Notes under the pieces: model-generated
Told to the model about the DNA's origin: nothing
The model's input: only the letters and a program-made list of their open reading frames with translations
Databases searched by the model: none
Shown: piece by piece, positions 1-6,183 of the stretch
How positions within the stretch are numbered: position 1 is the first letter of the stretch
Layout: each line of letters starts with the position of its first letter
IMG/VR virus record: IMGVR_UViG_2579778660_000006
Direction: 5' to 3' (one strand)
DNA from: a virus
Taxonomy: Duplodnaviria > Heunggongvirae > Uroviricota > Caudoviricetes
Length of the DNA stretch: 6,183 bases
Program-made: the position numbers and the translations under genes

Positions 1-906
1 GTGGATAGCGCACGCGCCCTTATTGCCCGGGGATGGGGAGTAAGCTTAGTCAGCCGTTGTCTCCGGGTGTCGCGTGCGCAGTTGCACGTCATTCTCAGAC
101 GAACCGATGACTGGATGGATGGCCGCCGCAGTCGTCACACTGATGATACGGATGTGCTTCTCCGTATACACCATGTTATCGGAGAGCTGCCCACGTATGG
201 TTATCGTCGGGTATGGGCGCTGCTTCGCAGACAGGCAGAACTTGATGGTATGCCTGCGATCAATGCCAAACGTGTTTACCGGATCATGCGCCAGAATGCG
301 CTGTTGCTTGAGCGAAAACCTGCTGTACCGCCATCGAAACGGGCACATACAGGCAGAGTGGCCGTGAAAGAAAGCAATCAGCGATGGTGCTCTGACGGGT
401 TCGAGTTCTGCTGTGATAACGGAGAGAGACTGCGTGTCACGTTCGCGCTGGACTGCTGTGATCGTGAGGCACTGCACTGGGCGGTCACTACCGGCGGCTT
501 CAACAGTGAAACAGTACAGGACGTCATGCTGGGAGCGGTGGAACGCCGCTTCGGCAACGATCTTCCGTCGTCTCCAGTGGAGTGGCTGACGGATAATGGT
601 TCATGCTACCGGGCTAATGAAACACGCCAGTTCGCCCGGATGTTGGGACTTGAACCGAAGAACACGGCGGTGCGGAGTCCGGAGAGTAACGGAATAGCAG
701 AGAGCTTCGTGAAAACGATAAAGCGTGACTACATCAGTATCATGCCCAAACCAGACGGGTTAACGGCAGCAAAGAACCTTGCAGAGGCGTTCGAGCATTA
801 TAACGAATGGCATCCGCATAGTGCGCTGGGTTATCGCTCGCCACGGGAATATCTGCGGCAGCGGGCTTGTAATGGGTTAAGTGATAACAGATGTCTGGAA
901 ATATAG
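1..906 (+). CDS. insD: IS2 transposase OrfB (InsD), DDE integrase-core domain; in intact IS2 it is expressed as an OrfAB fusion by frameshifting
   Basis: 301-aa [24 protein letters not shown]...[11 protein letters not shown], recognised as IS2 InsD. Stop codon 904-906 lies inside the right terminal repeat, as expected for IS2. Confidence 0.93.
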
Positions 907-917
907 GGGCAAATCCA
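877..917. repeat. IS2 right terminal inverted repeat (about 41 bp, extent approximate)
   Basis: Terminal sequence ...TAGGGGCAAATCCA ends at 917. IS2 terminal repeats are about 41 bp. The left repeat is outside the window, so pairing cannot be shown here. Confidence 0.7.
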
Positions 918-1098
918 CCCACTCCCCCAAACCAATAAAAAAGATGCCGGAGGACAAAAAACCCAATGGAACAACGGGATATCTGTCAAAAAAAGACGTT
1001 CCATTAAAGACAAACAACGCAGCGCCAACAACTGTAAGCGCTTTATACCAGTAATCAATTTTCATGTTCTTAAGCGGATTTATTGGTGGTTGCGACAT
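918..1098 (-). pseudogene. 5' fragment (first 60 codons) of a small membrane-protein gene with two predicted transmembrane helices, interrupted by the IS2 insertion
   Basis: Minus-strand ORF starts at ATG 1098-1096 and reads MSQPPINPLKNMKIDYWYKALTVVGAALFVFNGTSFFDRYPVVPLGFLSSGIFFIGLGEW. It then runs straight into IS2 terminal-repeat sequence at 917, where the frame continues 13 codons to a stop inside IS2. Two clean hydrophobic segments support a real gene. An SD-like AAGGA sits 11 nt upstream of the ATG. Identity unknown. Confidence 0.4.
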
Positions 1099-1107
1099 TG
1101 CTTAATG

Positions 1108-1137
1108 AATCCTTAAAACTGTGGTGATTTTAAGGAT
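1108..1137. promoter_or_regulatory. Inverted repeat ATCCTTAAAA-N9-TTTTAAGGAT (10-bp arms, 11 bp counting the flanking pair), candidate operator or SD-sequestering hairpin in the divergent region
   Basis: Arms 1109-1118 and 1128-1137 are exact reverse complements and extend one further base pair outward (1108/1138). On the minus-strand transcript one arm contains the AAGGA Shine-Dalgarno-like element of the 918-1098 gene. Confidence 0.3.
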
Positions 1138-1375
1138 ACCACCTCGCCTGACGTGGTTAAAAGCAGGCACACAACACGAAAGCGCACGGCGAAGTTCGTC
1201 TCACTGTACGGTGTCGTTAAATTTAATTCGACCGTGCGCTTCCGGTTGTGGCAACCCGCGAAATGGCGCGGCGGTAAGTATGGCGGGGGTATTCCTTCCC
1301 CGTTGAGGACACCGAGTTGTCAGGTTGACCATACGCTTAAGTGACAACCCCGCTGCAACGCCCTCTGTTATCAAT

Positions 1376-1428
1376 TTTCTGGTGACGTTTGGCGGTATCA
1401 GTTTTACTCCGTGACTGCTCTGCCGCCG
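1376..1428 (+). ncRNA. dicF: DicF-family Hfq-dependent small RNA (prophage-encoded antisense inhibitor of ftsZ translation)
   Basis: TTTCTGGTGACGTTTGGCGGTATCAGTTTTACTCCGTGACTGCTCTGCCGCCG matches my recollection of the 53-nt E. coli DicF over its whole length, with possibly one difference at the last base. It is followed by TTTTT. Gene order dicF-dicB-ydfD and the ~174 bp dicF-dicB spacer match the Qin prophage dic operon. Confidence 0.85.
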
Positions 1429-1433
1429 TTTTT
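1391..1433 (+). terminator. DicF 3' stem-loop plus U-tract (intrinsic-terminator-like 3' end)
   Basis: GGCGG (1391-1395) pairs with CCGCC (1423-1427), enclosing an internal structured region, followed by T5 at 1429-1433. Confidence 0.55.
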
Positions 1434-1602
1434 AAAGTGAATTTTGTGATGCGGTGAATGCGGCTAAGCGCACGCGGAACAGTTAAAACCAAAAACAGTG
1501 TTATGGGTGGATTCTCTGTATCCGGCGTTAATTGTTAACTGGTTAACGTCACCTGGAGGCACCAGGCACTGCATCACAAAATTCATTGTTGAGGACGCGA
1601 TA

Positions 1603-1791
1603 ATGAAAACGTTATTACCAAACGTTAATACGTCTGAAGGTTGTTTTGAAATTGGTGTCACTATCAGTAACCCTGTATTTACTGAAGATGCCATTAACAA
1701 GAGAAAACAAGAACGGGAGCTATTAAATAAAATATGCATTGTTTCAATGCTGGCTCGTTTACGTCTGATGCCAAAAGGATGTGCACAATGA
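1603..1791 (+). CDS. dicB: DicB cell-division inhibitor (acts through MinC), 62 aa
   Basis: ATG at 1603 preceded by GAGGA (1591-1595, 7-nt spacing). Product MKTLLPNVNTSEGCFEIGVTISNPVFTEDAINKRKQERELLNKICIVSMLARLRLMPKGCAQ matches my recollection of E. coli DicB in sequence and length. The 97-aa ORF from 1498 in the track is an unsupported upstream extension of the same frame. Confidence 0.85.
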   Translation: MKTLLPNVNTSEGCFEIGVTISNPVFTEDAINKRKQERELLNKICIVSMLARLRLMPKGCAQ

Positions 1792-1979
1792 ATTCAGCAT
1801 TTGCGCTTGTTCTGACAGTTTTTCTTGTTTCCGGAGAGCCAGTTGATATTGCAGTCAGTGTTCACAGGACAATGCAGGAGTGTATGACTGCAGCAACCGA
1901 ACAGAAAATTCCCGGTAACTGTTACCCGGTCGATAAAGTTATTCACCAGTATAATATCGAAATCCCGGCAGGTCTTTAA
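1788..1979 (+). CDS. ydfD: YdfD-family small membrane protein (Qin prophage lysis protein family), 63 aa
   Basis: ATG at 1788 overlaps the dicB stop (ATGA, 1788-1791) and is preceded by AAGGA (1775-1779). Product MNSAFALVLTVFLVSGEPVDIAVSVHRTMQECMTAATEQKIPGNCYPVDKVIHQYNIEIPAGL has an N-terminal hydrophobic helix, and its length and sequence fit my recollection of YdfD. Confidence 0.8.
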   Translation: MNSAFALVLTVFLVSGEPVDIAVSVHRTMQECMTAATEQKIPGNCYPVDKVIHQYNIEIPAGL

Positions 1980-2072
1980 AACAGTTCCGTAATAAATATC
2001 CGGTTTCATTCTTATATGCCAGCAATGGCAGGGATTTGTTCATCCTTAAATCTGTCATGAGGTTAAAACAAA

Positions 2073-4544
2073 ATGAGTAAAGTCTTTATTTGCGCCGCTA
2101 TTCCTGACGAACTGGCAACAAGGGAAGAAGGCGCTGTGGCTGTAGCCACAGCCATTGAAGCTGGCGACGAACGCCGTGCTCGAGCAAAATTTCACTGGCA
2201 ATTCCTGGAACATTATCCGGCTGCTCAGGACTGCGCTTATAAATTTATTGTCTGCGAGGATAAACCTGGCATACCCCGCCCTGCCCTCGATTCATGGGAT
2301 GCTGAATATATGCAGGAAAACCGCTGGGATGAGGAGTCTGCTTCTTTTGTCCCGGTTGAGACTGAATCCGATCCGATGAACGTCACTTTTGACAAGCTGG
2401 CCCCTGAAGTACAGAACGCTGTCATGGTTAAGTTCGACACATGTGAAAACATCACCGTTGATATGGTTATTAGCGCACAGGAATTGTTGCAGGAAGACAT
2501 GGCAACATTCGACGGACATATCGTTGAAGCGTTGATGAAAATGCCAGAAGTTAACGCCATGTATCCGGAGCTTAAGTTGCACGCCATTGGGTGGGTTAAG
2601 CATAAATGTATTCCTGGTGCTAAATGGCCCGAAATTCAGGCAGAGATGCGCATCTGGAAAAAACGTCGCGAAGGTGAACGCAAGGAAACCGGAAAATACA
2701 CGTCTATTGTTGATCTCGCCCGCGCCAGAGCCAATCAACAGTACACTGAAAATTCAACAGGAAAAATCAGCCCGGTCATTGCTGCCATTCATCGCGAATA
2801 CAAGCAGACATGGAAAACACTGGATGACGAACTGGCCTACGCTCTCTGGCCTGGTGATGTGGATGCCGGAAACATTGACGGCAGCATCCATCGCTGGGCA
2901 AAAAATGAAGTTATCGATAACGACCGCGAAGACTGGAAGCGTATCTCGGCATCAATGCGCAAACAGCCTGATGCCCTTCGCTACGACCGCCAAACTATTT
3001 TTGGCCTTGTCCGTGAACGTCCGATCGACATTCACAAAGATCCCGTAGCACTGAACAAATATATCTGCGAATACCTGACGACAAAGGGCGTGTTTGAGAA
3101 TGAAGAAACAGACCTGGGCACTGTTGATGTTCTCCAGTCATCAGAAACACAAACTGATGCAGTGGAAACTGAGGTATCTGATATCCCAAAAAATGAAACC
3201 GCGCCGGAAGCTGAACCATCTGTAGAGCGTGAGGGGCCGTTCTATTTCCTCTTCGCAGATAAGGACGGAGAAAAATACGGTCGCGCAAACAAACTTTCTG
3301 GTCTGGATAAGGCACTGGCTGCTGGCGCCACTGAAATCACAAAAGAAGAATATTTTGCCCGAAAAAATGGCACATACACGGGCTTACCGCAAAATGTAGA
3401 TACCGCTGAAGATTCAGAACAACCAGAGCCGATAAAAGTTACCGCTGACGAAGTAAACAAAATTATGCAGGCAGCCAATATCATCCAGCCTGACGCCGAT
3501 AAGTTGCTTGCTGCATCACGTGGTGAATTTGTTGAAGGGATTAGTGACCCGAATGATCCGAAATGGGTTAAGGGGATCCAGACCCGCGATTCTGTGAACC
3601 AGAACCAGCATGAATCGGAACGGAACTACCAAAAAGCGGAACAAAACAGCCCAAATGCGTTACAAAACGAGCCAGAAACGAAACAGCCTGAATCAGTGGC
3701 GCAACAGGAAGTGGAAAAAGTCTGCACCGCCTGCGGTCAGACCGGCGGCGGCAACTGCCCTGATTGTGGCGCGGTAATGGGCGACGCAACATACCAGGAA
3801 ACATTCGATGAAGAGTATCAGGTTGAAGTTCAGGAAGATGATCCGGAGAAAATGGAAGGCGCTGAACATCCACACAAGGAGAACACTGGCGGCAATCAGC
3901 ATCACGATAGCGATAATGAAACTGGCGAGACGGCAGATCACTCAATTAAGGTGAACGGTCATCACGAAATCACATCCACCAGCAGGACGTGTGACCATCT
4001 AATGATCGACCTTGAAACCATGGGAAAAAATCCTGATGCCCCGATCATCTCAATAGGTGCAATATTTTTCGATCCGCAAACCGGAGATATGGGACCGGAA
4101 TTTAGTAAGACTATCGATCTGGAAACTGCTGGCGGAGTCATTGATCGGGACACCATTAAATGGTGGCTTAAGCAATCACGCGAAGCGCAATCTGCCATTA
4201 TGACCGATGAAATCCCGTTAGATGATGCACTGTTACAATTGCGGGAATTTATCGACGAAAACTCCGGTGAATTTTTTGTTCAGGTCTGGGGAAATGGAGC
4301 CAACTTCGACAACACGATTTTGCGCCGTTCATACGAACGGCAGGGGATCCCCTGCCCGTGGCGTTACTACAACGATCGCGATGTACGCACAATCGTTGAG
4401 CTGGGGAAAGCCATAGACTTCGATGCCAGAACGGCTATTCAATTCGAAGGTGAGCGCCATAATGCACTTGATGACGCCCGTTACCAGGCAAAATACGTTT
4501 CAGTTATCTGGCAAAAACTGATCCCGAGTCAGGTTGATTCTTAA
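2073..4544 (+). CDS. Large prophage early-region protein (823 aa): N-terminal domain of unknown function, acidic linker, Cys4 zinc ribbon, His-rich linker, C-terminal DEDDh (DnaQ/RNase T/Rv2179c-like) 3'-5' exonuclease domain
   Basis: Uninterrupted 2472-nt ORF with GAGG about 10 nt upstream of the ATG. The C-terminal ~180 aa carry DEDDh motifs in the right order: Exo I MIDLETMG (D646, E648), Exo II WGNGANFDNTIL (D746), Exo III HNALDDARY (H796, D801). CTACGQTGGGNCPDCG (aa 551-566) is a CxxC-N7-CxxC ribbon. Residues 477-506 (KLLAASRGEFVEGISDPNDPKWVKGIQTRD) resemble a segment I associate with Rac RecE, and the N-terminal ~300 aa resemble what I recall of the truncated K-12 ydfE product. Both recollections are unverified. 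Confidence 0.9.
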   Translation: MSKVFICAAIPDELATREEGAVAVATAIEAGDERRARAKFHWQFLEHYPAAQDCAYKFIVCEDKPGIPRPALDSWDAEYMQENRWDEESASFVPVETESDPMNVTFDKLAPEVQNAVMVKFDTCENITVDMVISAQELLQEDMATFDGHIVEALMKMPEVNAMYPELKLHAIGWVKHKCIPGAKWPEIQAEMRIWKKRREGERKETGKYTSIVDLARARANQQYTENSTGKISPVIAAIHREYKQTWKTLDDELAYALWPGDVDAGNIDGSIHRWAKNEVIDNDREDWKRISASMRKQPDALRYDRQTIFGLVRERPIDIHKDPVALNKYICEYLTTKGVFENEETDLGTVDVLQSSETQTDAVETEVSDIPKNETAPEAEPSVEREGPFYFLFADKDGEKYGRANKLSGLDKALAAGATEITKEEYFARKNGTYTGLPQNVDTAEDSEQPEPIKVTADEVNKIMQAANIIQPDADKLLAASRGEFVEGISDPNDPKWVKGIQTRDSVNQNQHESERNYQKAEQNSPNALQNEPETKQPESVAQQEVEKVCTACGQTGGGNCPDCGAVMGDATYQETFDEEYQVEVQEDDPEKMEGAEHPHKENTGGNQHHDSDNETGETADHSIKVNGHHEITSTSRTCDHLMIDLETMGKNPDAPIISIGAIFFDPQTGDMGPEFSKTIDLETAGGVIDRDTIKWWLKQSREAQSAIMTDEIPLDDALLQLREFIDENSGEFFVQVWGNGANFDNTILRRSYERQGIPCPWRYYNDRDVRTIVELGKAIDFDARTAIQFEGERHNALDDARYQAKYVSVIWQKLIPSQVDS

Positions 4545-4555
4545 TGTTCAACTGT

Positions 4556-4587
4556 CGCCGGTTGTGACTGGTATTCTGCAACCGGCG
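4556..4587 (+). other. GC-rich stem-loop (9-bp stem CGCCGGTTG/CAACCGGCG, 14-nt loop) just downstream of the 823-aa gene; not followed by a U-tract
   Basis: 4556-4564 is the exact reverse complement of 4579-4587. No T-run follows, so it is not a canonical intrinsic terminator. It may be an RNA processing or stability element, or a protein binding site. Confidence 0.4.
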
Positions 4588-4616
4588 CTCGTCTAATGTA
4601 AGAGATAAAGAAATCG

Positions 4617-4868
4617 ATGAGCGAAGTAATCATGATTGTCTCTCCCGGCAAATGGGTATCCGAAGAGCAGTTAATTGCGCTGAAAGGAATAAAAAAAGGT
4701 ACGTTAAAAAAGGCCCGGGAAAAATCGTTTATGGAAGGAAGGGAATATAAGCATGTCGCTCATGACGGTATGCCATGGGATAACAGTCCATGCTTTTACA
4801 ACCTGGAAGAAATTGATCGCTGGATTGAGCGCCAGGCATCAGCAAGACCAAGACGTCATCTTACTTGA
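4617..4868 (+). CDS. xis: Excisionase-like protein (lambda Xis-type winged-helix recombination directionality factor), 83 aa
   Basis: Small ORF immediately upstream of and co-oriented with the integrase. The segment KKAREKSFMEGREYKHVAHDG resembles the conserved GREY(L/K) wing region of lambda Xis. The start is uncertain: ATG 4617 has a weak RBS, and ATG 4632 is an alternative. Confidence 0.65.
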   Translation: MSEVIMIVSPGKWVSEEQLIALKGIKKGTLKKAREKSFMEGREYKHVAHDGMPWDNSPCFYNLEEIDRWIERQASARPRRHLT

Positions 4869-4887
4869 CTAAAAGCCACACTAACTA

Positions 4888-6183
4888 ATGAGAGAAGTTG
4901 AAATGAAATATCCGACAGGCGTGGAAAACCATGGAGGGAAATTACGTATCTGGTTTGTTTATAAAGGCGTAAGAGTCAGGGAAAACCTGGGGGTTCCTGA
5001 CACAGCAAAAAACAGGCGCGTTGCAGGTGAGCTACGCGCCTCTGTTTGTTACGCAATAAAAACTGGTGTTTTCGACTATGCAAAACAGTTTCCCTCCTCA
5101 CGCAATCTGGAAAAATTTGGTGAGGCCCGACAAGATTTAACCATAAAAGAACTGGCTGAAAAATTTCTGGCACTGAAAGAAACTGAAGTCGCAAAAACAT
5201 CACTCAACACATACCGTGCCGTCATCAAAAATATCCTGAGCATAATCGGTGAAAAAAATCTTGCCTCATCGATTAATAAAGAAAAATTACTGGAGGTTCG
5301 TAAAGAGCTACTGACTGGATACCAGATCCCCAAAAGTAACTATATTGTTACACAACCAGGGAGATCGGCTGTAACTGTAAATAATTACATGACAAATCTT
5401 AACGCCGTGTTCCAGTTTGGTGTTGATAACGGTTACCTGGTAGATAACCCGTTTAAGGGGATCTCGCCATTAAAGGAATCAAGAACCATTCCGGATCCTC
5501 TTTCGCGGGAGGAATTCATCCGTCTTATCGATGCGTGCAGAAATCAGCAAGCCAAAAATTTATGGTGTGTTTCTGTTTATACTGGCGTTCGCCCTGGTGA
5601 GCTGTGTGCACTTGGATGGGAGGACATAGATCTGAAAAATGGAACAATGATGATCAGGAGAAATTTAGCAAAAGACCGTTTCACGGTACCAAAAACACAG
5701 GCGGGAACCAATCGGGTCATTCATCTTATTAAGCCAGCAATCGACGCTCTCCGGAGTCAGATGACATTAACGAGACTGAGCAAAGAGCATATCATTGATG
5801 TTCACCTCAGAGAGTATGGCAGAACAGAAAAACATAAATGCACCTTTGTTTTTCAACCTGAAGTGTCAGCGAGAGTAAAAAATTATGGTGACCATTTTAC
5901 CGTTGACTCAATAAGGCAGATGTGGGACGCAGCGATAAAACGTGCCGGACTCCGCCATCGAAAATCATATCAGTCGAGACATACTTATGCCTGCTGGTCG
6001 CTGACAGCTGGTGCTAACCCGGCATTTATAGCAAACCAGATGGGCCATGCAGATGCGCAAATGGTATTTCAGGTATACGGAAAATGGATGTCTGAAAACA
6101 ATAATGCACAGGTAGCTTTGTTAAATACACAGTTAAGCGAGTTTGCCCCAACCATGCCCCATAACGAAGCAATGAAAAATTAA
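4888..6183 (+). CDS. int: Tyrosine site-specific recombinase (phage integrase) with N-terminal arm-binding-type domain, intact
   Basis: 431-aa ORF. The C-terminal catalytic region has the tyrosine recombinase signature in order: R in VYTGVRPGELCALGWEDIDL, K in KTQAGTNRV, HxxR in SRHTYA, and the H...Y box MGHADAQMVFQVYGKW. The N-terminus KYPTGVENHGGKLRIWFVYKGVRVRENLG is typical of the arm-binding domain of enterobacterial prophage integrases. The true start may be ATG 4903 (MKYPTG...), which has a slightly better RBS. The stop is the last codon of the window. Confidence 0.95.
   Translation: MREVEMKYPTGVENHGGKLRIWFVYKGVRVRENLGVPDTAKNRRVAGELRASVCYAIKTGVFDYAKQFPSSRNLEKFGEARQDLTIKELAEKFLALKETEVAKTSLNTYRAVIKNILSIIGEKNLASSINKEKLLEVRKELLTGYQIPKSNYIVTQPGRSAVTVNNYMTNLNAVFQFGVDNGYLVDNPFKGISPLKESRTIPDPLSREEFIRLIDACRNQQAKNLWCVSVYTGVRPGELCALGWEDIDLKNGTMMIRRNLAKDRFTVPKTQAGTNRVIHLIKPAIDALRSQMTLTRLSKEHIIDVHLREYGRTEKHKCTFVFQPEVSARVKNYGDHFTVDSIRQMWDAAIKRAGLRHRKSYQSRHTYACWSLTAGANPAFIANQMGHADAQMVFQVYGKWMSENNNAQVALLNTQLSEFAPTMPHNEAMKN

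Follow-up and report, generated by a model that had tools for sequence, protein, structure and literature searches.

Evidence for a Mosaic RecE-Type Protein with a DEDDh 3′-5′ Exonuclease Domain in a Qin-Type Prophage Operon

The window analyzed here (the whole stretch of viral DNA, 6,183 nucleotides) carries part of an insertion element followed by a run of genes on the same strand. Its features are as follows.

1-918, plus strand: 3′ part of an IS2 element (Pfam rve, rve_3, and HTH_21), with the IS2 transposase ORF (orfB/InsD) at 1-906
1377-1428, plus strand: DicF small RNA (Rfam RF00039, 72.5 bits against a gathering score of 48, E 4.7e-15)
1603-1791, plus strand: dicB, a cell-division inhibitor and kil-like gene (PF05358, E 1.9e-40)
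1788-1979, plus strand: ydfD, DUF1482 (PF07358, E 9e-26)
2073-4544, plus strand: full-length ydfE, the gene for an 823-aa putative chimeric nuclease (ORF; PHROG 2082; match to phage HannyBb)
2073-3107, plus strand: N-terminal region, aa 1-345, predicted to consist of an alpha/beta unit and two helical subdomains
3108-3431, plus strand: variable acidic linker, aa 346-453
3432-3938, plus strand: segment B, aa 454-622, common to RecE (BLASTP against RecE; DNA identity to recE and to phage 813R8)
3939-3940, no strand: mosaic breakpoint at codon 622/623 (blastn)
3976-3983, minus strand: Chi octamer, reading GCTGGTGG on this strand; distance to the breakpoint 37 nt
3996-4511, plus strand: predicted DEDDh 3′-5′ exonuclease domain, aa 642-813, of the DexA/EcD/Rv2179c family (PF16473)
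4617-4868, plus strand: excisionase, DUF1233 (PF06806, E 1.6e-31)
4888-6183, plus strand: tyrosine integrase of the intQ type, intact in the window (PF12167 and PF00589)

The gene order, dicF-dicB-ydfD-ORF-xis-int, is that of a Qin-type early-left operon; set beside the order in Rac (kilR-...-recE-recT-...-xisR-intR), it bears out the proposal of an earlier note on this DNA that the 823-aa gene occupies the slot of recE or exo. The ydfD product is annotated as a lysis protein in strain AH01 and in K-12, and the K-12 intQ pseudogene matches positions 5024-6183 of the window. The IS2 sequence (1-918) is 100% identical to IS2 of strain AH01 and to K-12 IS2E; it is inserted upstream of dicF and cuts the operon off from its normal repressor-controlled promoter region. 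The dicB operon is controlled by DicA, and the early-left operon is repressed in lysogens. No promoter-like site was found inside the 823-aa gene.

The gene begins with ATG and encodes 823 aa with no internal stops, and phage HannyBb encodes a protein 98.9% identical to its product. The family is already named in databases: PHROG 2082 spans aa 1-822 (profile positions 1-822 of 823), and cluster representatives at least 92% identical to the window protein carry YdfE_N (PF27430) and YdfE_C (PF27432), families of newer Pfam releases that lie in the noncatalytic part. Local Pfam searches, run separately on aa 1-345 and 346-635, gave zero matches. The N-terminal region is predicted to comprise an alpha/beta subdomain (aa 1-95) and two helical subdomains (aa 101-205 and 245-340), and no informative fold match was found for its model. 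A full-length AlphaFold2 model built from a 20-sequence alignment was unusable (mean pLDDT 41.6), with linker residues at about aa 390-430 reaching a pLDDT of 75-81 within the otherwise poor model; a small linker element (aa 386-435, nucleotides 3228-3377) is predicted with moderate confidence to form a pair of beta-hairpins plus helices. The linker has the highest dN of all segments and no homology to phage 813R8 by blastn. A search for alignment depth with a distant-homolog query returned 120 near-identical Klebsiella proteins.

The central part of the protein is related to RecE, as the earlier note had recognized. Residues 262-625 align with RecE 278-591 (BLASTP, E 2e-61), the alignment stopping at RecE 591, and the RecE equivalog model NF007259 gives 281 bits where its cut-off is 1,269, its match being confined to aa 246-625. 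Segment B contains a conserved motif, GISDPNDPKWVKGIQTRD, and a zinc ribbon with four cysteines (C551, C554, C562, and C565; nucleotides 3723-3767), and it ends in an acidic tail. The two ends of the protein differ from RecE. Exonuc_VIII (PF06630), found in K-12 RecE, HK225 RecE, and the 813R8 protein, has no match in aa 1-345; the PD-(D/E)XK family PF12684 (DUF3799), which RecE itself matches at aa 615-850, has no match anywhere in the window protein.

Comparison at the DNA level places the change at a sharp breakpoint at position 3939, upholding the suggestion of a domain-swapped RecE relative. Sequence L007 is 98.4% identical over window positions 919-3939, where homology ends, and the 78% DNA identity to K-12 recE over 3497-3939 ends at 3939 too; phage 813R8, 97% identical in segment B from position 3433, has separate breakpoints against the window (blastn throughout). 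Bodies 97-98% identical to that of the window protein are found joined to the PD-(D/E)XK nuclease, with recT directly behind them: a 900-aa RecE-type protein, 97% identical over aa 1-622, carries PF12684, and its gene overlaps the following recT by 8 nt. All four combinations of N-terminal domain and nuclease occur, and the fused DEDDh forms fall into seven distinct 50%-identity clusters that include both N-terminal domain types. Muyrers et al. reportedly found in 2000 that RecE cut down to about aa 588-866 is enough for function with RecT, and a joint exchange of nuclease and recT fits that observation. The Chi octamer near the breakpoint is kept in all five fused DEDDh loci checked.

The C-terminal domain matches PF16473 (Rv2179c-like 3′-5′ exonuclease) at aa 642-813 with E 3.1e-67 and 226.1 bits (the cut-off is 27), in an alignment that takes in positions 2-177 of the 177-position profile. 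The match to this family, with none to PF12684, agrees with the earlier assignment of the C-terminus to the DEDDh rather than the PD-(D/E)XK nucleases; the motifs are D646-x-E648 (Exo I), D746 (Exo II), and H796-x4-D801 (Exo III), so the earlier numbering of D646 and E648 was correct. These five residues align with D7, E9, D119, H186, and D191 of T4 DexA and are invariant in two alignments (A4 and A5) down to 25-30% identity. In a phmmer search of the PDB, T4 DexA was matched (8KEL, E 1.9e-6) and was the only match at E ≤ 1; no Rv2179c chain appeared at that threshold. EcD, the E. coli homolog of DexA, is 38% identical to the C-terminal domain over 183 aa (E 1e-37), and both T4 DexA and EcD have been shown experimentally to be 3′-5′ DNA exonucleases (Kang et al. 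2025; PMC12153337). The equivalent of DexA W152, a residue reported to stack on 5hmC and a tryptophan in DexA, EcD, and five stand-alone homologs, is Y766 here, and DexA D169, a glutamate in EcD, corresponds approximately to K779, the equivalence lying in a gapped loop. As for the DexA tetramer contacts, whose loss marks the dimer-only state of 5hmC-recognizing exonucleases (HREX), S87 aligns with P715 and D90 with D718, so that one is lost and one kept in a gapped region of the alignment. The Pfam family takes its name from the RNase Rv2179c (RNase AS), an observation that weighs against the explanation preferred below. Taken together, the profile matches and alignments make it very probable that the protein is a mosaic chimera carrying a DEDDh 3′-5′ exonuclease.

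In K-12, ydfE was thought to survive as an IS2-truncated remnant, and this is what the comparison reveals: the K-12 gene corresponds to aa 1-256 of the 823-aa protein, with 255 of 256 residues identical, and window positions 2840-5023 are missing, an IS2 remnant standing in their place.

Elsewhere the fused gene is common and conserved. Of 5,426 complete E. coli genomes, 2,580 have an intact junction of segment B, DEDDh domain, and xis, and 1,729 have segment B followed by the PD-(D/E)XK nuclease and recT; the DEDDh version is thus more widespread in E. coli than recE-recT. A genome may carry as many as nine copies, and in many cryptic prophages the gene has stayed intact. Translation of six orthologous loci, among them one from a plaque-forming phage and others from E. 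albertii and E. ruysiae, gave an unbroken ORF in every case. The N-terminal region has a dN/dS of 0.11, YdfE_N being under purifying selection, and segment B and the DEDDh domain differ by only 2-12 substitutions between the copies compared, which left their dN/dS uninformative. Top-strand Chi sites are modestly enriched in HannyBb (five, versus about 0.85 expected).

A tblastn panel of annealases, made up of RecT (two types), Red-beta, Erf, and the Rad52-like module only, gave zero matches in the window, in eight fused loci of other species, and in the whole HannyBb genome. In contrast, recT follows every PD-(D/E)XK version examined, and it adjoins the body only when the body carries that nuclease. 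The earlier view that the nuclease has no recombinase partner therefore holds for the window and for the related phages and prophages examined, and its proposed survey of homologs for an adjacent annealase comes out the same way. The N-terminal region was considered as an annealase substitute and rejected because the same region coexists with recT in the PD-(D/E)XK version. Clustering of the neighbors at 55 loci gave xis and int as the only recurrent partners, and 44 of 49 stand-alone homologs have no recombination gene of the panel nearby. The gene has the early-left operon location and the encoded nuclease that are criteria for a lambdoid Rec module; the strand-annealing protein that is a further criterion (Zheng et al. 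2025) is absent as judged by the RecT/Red-beta/Erf/Rad52-like panel. Such a protein is found in all but nine of 246 Enterobacteriales-infecting panel phages with recognizable Rec-module genes (PMC12315714), and the same study counts DnaQ-like 3′-5′ nucleases among the components of lambdoid Rec modules (Zheng et al. 2025; PMC12315714).

A third C-terminal module is found in 710-aa proteins of Klebsiella prophages (and as a product of the “Stenotrophomonas phage” BUCT708), whose N-terminus carries PF27430 and is 28% identical over aa 11-365; these may be what Zheng et al. call “RecE-2.” Their genes lie before xis-int, as in the window, and a Gp157-family gene comes after them. The C-terminal region of about 270 aa is neither of the two nucleases and is probably a Rad52-like annealase. 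An hhalign comparison of its signature helix is Rad52-like (E 0.026), seven of ten members give weak matches to PF04098 (best E 0.0034), and a profile of the module found nothing significant among PDB sequences; we grade the assignment as probable because its support consists of the helix comparison and the weak PF04098 matches.

The explanation that we prefer, with a probability of roughly one-half as a whole, is that the mosaic RecE-family protein is a DNA-end 3′-5′ exonuclease of a module that lacks an annealase and relies on host recombination. Upon prophage induction, the early-left transcript (dicF-dicB-ydfD-ORF-xis-int) would lead to synthesis of the protein, and the body would deliver it to the target of the RecE body, the likeliest candidates being the ends of linear double-stranded DNA or a protein sitting on such ends. 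There the DEDDh domain would trim 3′ ends by two-metal-ion catalysis through D646, E648, D746, H796, and D801, leaving blunt or 5′-tailed ends, in contrast to the 3′ tails made by RecE. With the phage annealase absent, these ends would pass to host RecBCD, Chi, and RecA rather than to phage single-strand annealing. By analogy with its characterized relatives, DNA seems somewhat the better guess as the substrate; the hand-off to host recombination is a tentative suggestion. In favor of the preferred explanation, the other two C-terminal partners of the body have recombination functions (the RecE nuclease and the probable Rad52-like annealase), which suggests a role in DNA-end processing and recombination rather than the host takeover, anti-defense, or exclusion that the earlier note put forward. 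Against it, we know of no way to assign DNA or RNA as the substrate of a DEDDh domain from its sequence. In addition, the usual effect of 3′-5′ exonucleases on homologous recombination is to inhibit it, not to promote it (PMC12315714), most of the stand-alone homologs lack a neighboring recombination gene of the panel, defense against T4 by EcD is the sole published phenotype of a close family member (PMC12153337), and the role of the first ~600 residues of RecE is still unknown (reviewed in PMC11611040). Should the DEDDh form indeed supply RecBCD of the host, it would count among the components of a class of lambdoid phages, described recently, that rely on the recombination machinery of the host.

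A broader and rather doubtful extension is that the RecE-type body is a general adaptor that brings interchangeable effector modules to one shared target within infected cells; these would be a 5′-3′ exonuclease together with RecT, a 3′-5′ exonuclease alone, and a fused Rad52-like annealase. Were this so, the DEDDh version would represent an undescribed annealase-independent pathway of end processing with opposite polarity, which would serve the phage by priming host RecBCD/Chi recombination or else would destroy 3′ tails on which the Red or RecET systems of competing phages depend.

Exclusion of other phages by a nuclease like EcD (“HREX”), selectively digesting superinfecting DNA such as that of T-even phages with modified cytosines and thereby shielding the lysogen, appears unlikely. 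EcD belongs to the same Pfam family, is 38% identical, degrades T4 DNA containing 5hmC, and gives cells protection against T4 (PMC12153337). The number of copies per genome, their intactness in many cryptic prophages, and the purifying selection on YdfE_N are consistent with such a function; however, both residues that PMC12153337 links to 5hmC recognition are changed (W152 to Y766 and the D169 equivalent to K779), PADLOC gives zero matches, and neither the RecE-type body nor the clean alternation with recE-recT is explained. Moreover, an early-left operon is silent in lysogens, and the gene has no internal promoter-like site of its own. Were exclusion nevertheless the true function, the gene would be among the commonest prophage-borne defense genes in E. 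coli.

It is also quite improbable that the protein is a 3′-5′ exoribonuclease acting on host or phage RNA, whether by RNase AS-like trimming of poly(A) or by TONDO/ISG20-like trimming of RNA-phage 3′ ends. PF16473 was founded on an RNase, PGAP labels many copies as “3′-5′ exoribonuclease,” and there are prophage-encoded DEDDh exonucleases, fitted with auxiliary domains, that protect against MS2 and Q-beta (PMC13344964). Yet the PDB search retrieved T4 DexA only, the two nearest characterized relatives are DNases, the body is shared with the DNA recombination enzyme RecE, and the TONDO proteins are, according to their authors, ISG20 homologs of less than 500 aa.

An anti-defense enzyme that destroys an immune signal or guide (retron msDNA, or linear or cyclic oligonucleotides) draws its sole support from the precedent of phage nucleases and from early expression, and is very unlikely: homology to known anti-defense families was absent from all searches, cyclic oligonucleotides offer a DEDDh exonuclease no free 3′ end, and the RecE-type body and recE-recT alternation point elsewhere. 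A functionless by-product of chance in-frame fusion in decaying prophages is scarcely credible, for although many copies lie in defective prophages, the K-12 copy is truncated, and IS2 separates the operon here from its promoter region, the ORF is intact in six of six loci translated, the catalytic residues are invariant to 25-30% identity, dN/dS is 0.11 in the N-terminal region, and the seven 50%-identity clusters of fused DEDDh forms span both N-domain types.

The protein had been described as effectively unstudied. This stands for the full-length form, on which no functional study was found in the literature on ydfE or on exonucleases of dicB/ydfD prophages; it does not stand for the nuclease family, which was characterized in 2025 (DexA and EcD; PMC12153337). 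It is wrong to label these genes “exodeoxyribonuclease VIII,” and the name “3′-5′ exoribonuclease” is unsupported. RecE/RecT is a recombineering workhorse, and nature also pairs the same body, with no annealase beside it, with a nuclease of the opposite polarity; together with the related body that bears a probable fused annealase, this makes three natural “experiments” that bear on the function of the body.

Among known systems, the founder of PF16473, Rv2179c (RNase AS) of M. tuberculosis, has DEDDh chemistry in common with the window protein; it is an RNase encoded by a chromosomal gene of housekeeping type, not by a phage. T4 DexA (PDB 8KEL/8KEN) and EcD have PF16473 and the five catalytic residues in common with it, but they stand alone, at 189-227 aa, whereas here the domain forms the C-terminal end of a protein of 823 aa. 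Free-standing DnaQ-like nucleases of lambdoid and P22-like phages (mEp460 gp26, g341c gp30, and that of epsilon34) are 55-60% identical to the C-terminal domain and lie at the distal end of the early-left operon, some of them in an erf-ssb-exo-abc2 arrangement; they lack a RecE-type body and keep the tryptophan equivalent to DexA W152, and some adjoin an annealase, which none of the fused forms examined does. RecE (exonuclease VIII of Rac) has a homologous central region that includes the zinc ribbon and acidic tail; its PD-(D/E)XK 5′-3′ nuclease is replaced in the window protein by what is very probably a DEDDh nuclease of opposite polarity.

The gene for the 823-aa protein occupies the slot between kil-like genes and xis-int where an earlier note had placed an intact nuclease, and both the reading frame and its neighbours bear this out. 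The window carries the following features:

1-918: IS2, 3' part
1377-1428: DicF sRNA (Rfam, 72.5 bits)
1603-1791: dicB
1788-1979: ydfD
2073-4544, plus strand: uninterrupted ORF of 823 codons with an ATG start
3976-3983, minus strand: Chi octamer, 37 nt from the 3939 breakpoint, inside the DEDDh module
4617-4868: DUF1233 excisionase
4888-6183: tyrosine integrase, intact

The same gene order without IS2 is present in the complete genome of the plaque-forming Escherichia phage HannyBb, whose nuclease protein is 98.9% identical, and in a Qin-type prophage adjoining rspB in strain AH01. The K-12 pseudogene ydfE corresponds to residues 1-256 (255/256 identical), and window 2840-5023 is missing from K-12, with an IS2 remnant in its place, in line with the IS2 truncation that the same note had suggested. 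The gene lies within the induced early-left transcript. In the window, IS2 ends (918) directly upstream of the dicF-dicB-ydfD-nuclease operon and severs it from the ydfA/B/C and dicA promoter region found ahead of it in AH01 and HannyBb, so nuclease expression in this strain may differ from that in an intact prophage; no promoter-like sites were found inside the operon on the coding strand (850-4950). A 73-aa membrane-like ORF (877-1098, minus strand) extends into the IS2 end.

The protein combines a RecE-family body (the non-catalytic aa 1-622) with an intact DexA-family DEDDh active site. Its sole local-Pfam match is PF16473 (Rv2179c-like 3'-5' exonuclease; aa 642-813, E 3e-67), with all motifs of the DEDDh C-terminus that had been claimed (D646-x-E648, D746, and H796-x4-D801); the catalytic residues are invariant in alignments down to T4 DexA at 25% identity. 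The suspected RecE-like central segment is also real: RecE 278-591 aligns with aa 262-625 (E 2e-61), with near-identity across the GISDPNDPKWVKGIQTRD motif, a CxxC-x7-CxxC zinc ribbon (C551, C554, C562, and C565), and an acidic tail, and the alignment stops just short of the RecE PD-(D/E)XK domain (PF12684, RecE 615-850). Residues 1-345 have no local-Pfam match; precomputed protein-database annotation assigns close relatives to the newer families PF27430 (YdfE_N) and PF27432 (YdfE_C). In the predicted model, aa 1-65 (window 2073-2267) form an N-terminal alpha/beta unit that resembles numerous free-standing, uncharacterised phage proteins of ~65 aa in BFVD (TM-score 0.7-0.8 on target, E about 0.1-1), and this small domain may be widespread among phages. 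The otherwise disordered acidic linker includes a ~45-residue element, GPFYFLFADKDGEKYGRANKLSGLDKALAAGATEITKEEYFARKNG (aa 386-435, window 3228-3377), predicted as two beta-hairpins plus helices (pLDDT 75-81); K-12 RecE is without it.

Searching with aa 1-635, the non-catalytic part, recovered two kinds of protein that share an almost identical body. Those ending in PF16473 have 812-826 aa, with 23,183 sequences in a single 90%-identity cluster; those ending in PF12684 have ~900 aa and are 97% identical over aa 1-622. Both loci fetched for the second kind read dicB - ydfD - [body + PD-(D/E)XK] - recT - ... - xis - int at the Rac attachment site, with recT overlapping the nuclease gene by 8 nt. 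DNA of one such locus, L007, matches window 919-3939 at 98.4% identity, and K-12 recE matches window 3497-3939 at 78%; neither alignment goes beyond base 3939 (codon 622/623). The DEDDh module has been exchanged against PD-(D/E)XK plus recT at this fixed junction. In phage 813R8, DNA 97% identical to window 3433-4588 is found, and the RecE PF06630 N-terminal domain stands where the window has 2078-3432. Each of the two N-terminal domains thus occurs with each of the two nucleases, giving four combinations in all. The DEDDh unit (about 3940-4588) acts as a self-contained mosaic module. The window Chi octamer is kept in five other fused copies, all those checked.

It is the PD-(D/E)XK nuclease, and not the body, that the annealase accompanies; the annealase is absent exactly where the nuclease is DEDDh. 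Directly 3' of the PD-(D/E)XK gene, recT is found in K-12 Rac, L007, the similar locus L008, and HK225. In a set of 5,426 complete E. coli genomes, 1,729 have an intact junction from segment B (aa 454-622, shared with RecE) through PD-(D/E)XK to recT, in every case annotated recE + recT, and 2,580 have an intact segment B-DEDDh-xis junction, at up to nine copies per genome. A tblastn panel of annealases (two RecT types, Red-beta, Erf, and the Rad52-like module) gave no match in the window, none within ±7 kb at eight fused DEDDh loci of other species' reference genomes, and none in the entire HannyBb genome; the proposal of a lone nuclease therefore survives the refuting observation that the note itself had named, a bet/recT-like partner next to it in homologous prophages.

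T4 DexA (8KEL/8KEN, E 2e-6) was the only PDB protein found in a single-sequence search. Work by Kang et al. 2025 (PMC12153337) established that DexA acts on DNA as a 3'-5' exonuclease, and that EcD, a stand-alone homologue from E. coli, attacks T4 DNA containing 5hmC, leaves unmodified dsDNA undigested, and shields cells from T4; prophages, RecE, and larger architectures go unmentioned in that paper. Recovered via the published primer sequences, EcD is a 189-aa PF16473 protein with Ala78, matching PMC12153337, and is 38% identical to our C-domain (E 1e-37). The publication presents it as a bacterial exonuclease that defends against T4; its gene lies on IMG/VR contigs classed viral (L013, L018, L028, L031, and L034) and is probably carried by prophages, as its relatives are. 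Compared with these contigs, the reverse primer given in the paper has a single-base difference in an A-run. Stand-alone phage homologues are closer to the C-domain than EcD: mEp460 gp26 (60% identical) is the last gene before xis, and Salmonella phage g341c gp30 (55%) lies within kil-erf-ssb-exo-abc2. At stand-alone DEDDh loci, phage ssb is directly upstream in 5/49, with erf too in three of the five; the only other recurrent neighbours are xis and int. An HD-domain-like protein is encoded at most three genes from the stand-alone exonuclease in 6/55 loci (L090:5981-6646 and five other species-representative loci), which suggests a possible pairing in nucleotide salvage. In mEp460, the gene at L009:2178-2714, which precedes the exonuclease gene by several positions and is annotated deoxyribonucleoside 5'-monophosphate phosphatase, may encode a protein of the same kind.

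By analogy with EcD, the 823-aa protein could plausibly be an exclusion or defence nuclease. However, the proposed 5hmC-reading residues are not kept: DexA W152, which is Trp in EcD and all stand-alone homologues, is Y766, and the acidic residue equivalent to DexA D169 is K779. Moreover, the gene sits in a repressed operon, and this explanation leaves the RecE body unaccounted for. Pfam and PGAP names point to an RNase, or a TONDO-like enzyme (PMC13344964), but the nearest characterised relatives are DNases, making this unlikely; the "exoribonuclease" label on such genes is unsupported, and "exodeoxyribonuclease VIII" is wrong. Nothing in the analysis supports anti-defence via signal degradation, which is very improbable. 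A functionless fusion is equally improbable: the ORFs are intact, the catalytic residues do not vary, selection is purifying, and fused forms arose in independent lineages.

The body family is narrow, with only 245 clusters (50% identity) at E<=0.001 among 1.84 billion representatives. Of 50 representatives of at least 450 aa, 7 end in DEDDh, 14 in PD-(D/E)XK, and 16 in a third type of module of ~270 aa; the remaining 13 carry nothing recognised at the C-terminus. The ~270-aa module is probably a Rad52-like annealase, judging from profile comparisons: its invariant motif (KKSLTD-x3-K-x-LS-x-LGF) maps to the human RAD52 signature helix, residues 140-161 (hhalign, E 0.026; RAD52 sequence checked against 1H2I/1KN0), and PF04098 (Rad52/Rad22) weakly matches 7/10 members (best E 0.0034); a PDB profile search with the module found nothing. 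If so, all other partners of the RecE-type body are recombination functions. The ~710-aa proteins concerned (P0121-P0240, 16 cluster representatives; L037:4974-7106, plus strand) have a YdfE_N-type N-terminus and the conserved module with the signature KKSLTDAxKKALSxLGF, are followed by a Gp157-family gene, and go under 'hypothetical' or 'exonuclease' in databases (PHROG 2489/7838). Their layout resembles a fusion of body and annealase, and they may correspond to the 'RecE-2' proteins for which Zheng et al. gave no explanation. Klebsiella pneumoniae genomes by the dozen encode proteins 100% identical to the 710-aa protein of 'Stenotrophomonas phage vB_SmeS_BUCT708' (L037, OM816834.1; P0121, 87 contigs), so the host stated for this phage looks doubtful. 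Contigs assigned to unrelated phyla, from a Veillonella parvula MAG (L042) and Chryseobacterium sp. (L074), carry Enterobacteriaceae-type copies of the gene for the 823-aa protein (DEDDh domains 99% and 57% identical), probably through binning or assembly contamination.

The family already has database entries (PHROG 2082; Pfam YdfE_N/YdfE_C; PGAP "exonuclease"). Characterisation of its nuclease domain family came in 2025, and the presence of DnaQ-like nucleases in lambdoid Rec modules has been reported. "Effectively unstudied" thus holds for the full-length protein, for which the searchable literature yielded no functional study, and not for the nuclease domain; nor did that literature yield a description of the precise RecE/DEDDh swap with recT co-loss or of a three-way effector exchange on the RecE-type body. 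The DEDDh-type gene is extremely common, in part mis-annotated, and gives a way into the N-terminal two-thirds of RecE, which have long lacked an explanation.

We propose that the enzyme trims nucleotides from DNA 3' ends and that the body would steer the DEDDh domain to the same place as RecE's, probably linear DNA ends. Full-length RecE outperforms its isolated nuclease domain, and does so in linear-linear recombination specifically (review PMC11611040). Blunt or 5'-tailed ends might then be used by host recombination and not by a phage annealing pathway. This is the weakest step; it fits the lack of an annealase and the top-strand Chi excess of HannyBb (5 top-strand and 2 bottom-strand sites vs about 0.85 expected per strand). 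"DnaQ-like 3'-to-5' nucleases" are listed among lambdoid recombination module members, and such 3'-5' enzymes usually inhibit recombination (Zheng et al. 2025, PMC12315714). The Chi excess recalls the RecBCD-dependent lambdoids without a Rec module described in the same study, whose phage LLS carries a stand-alone homologue.
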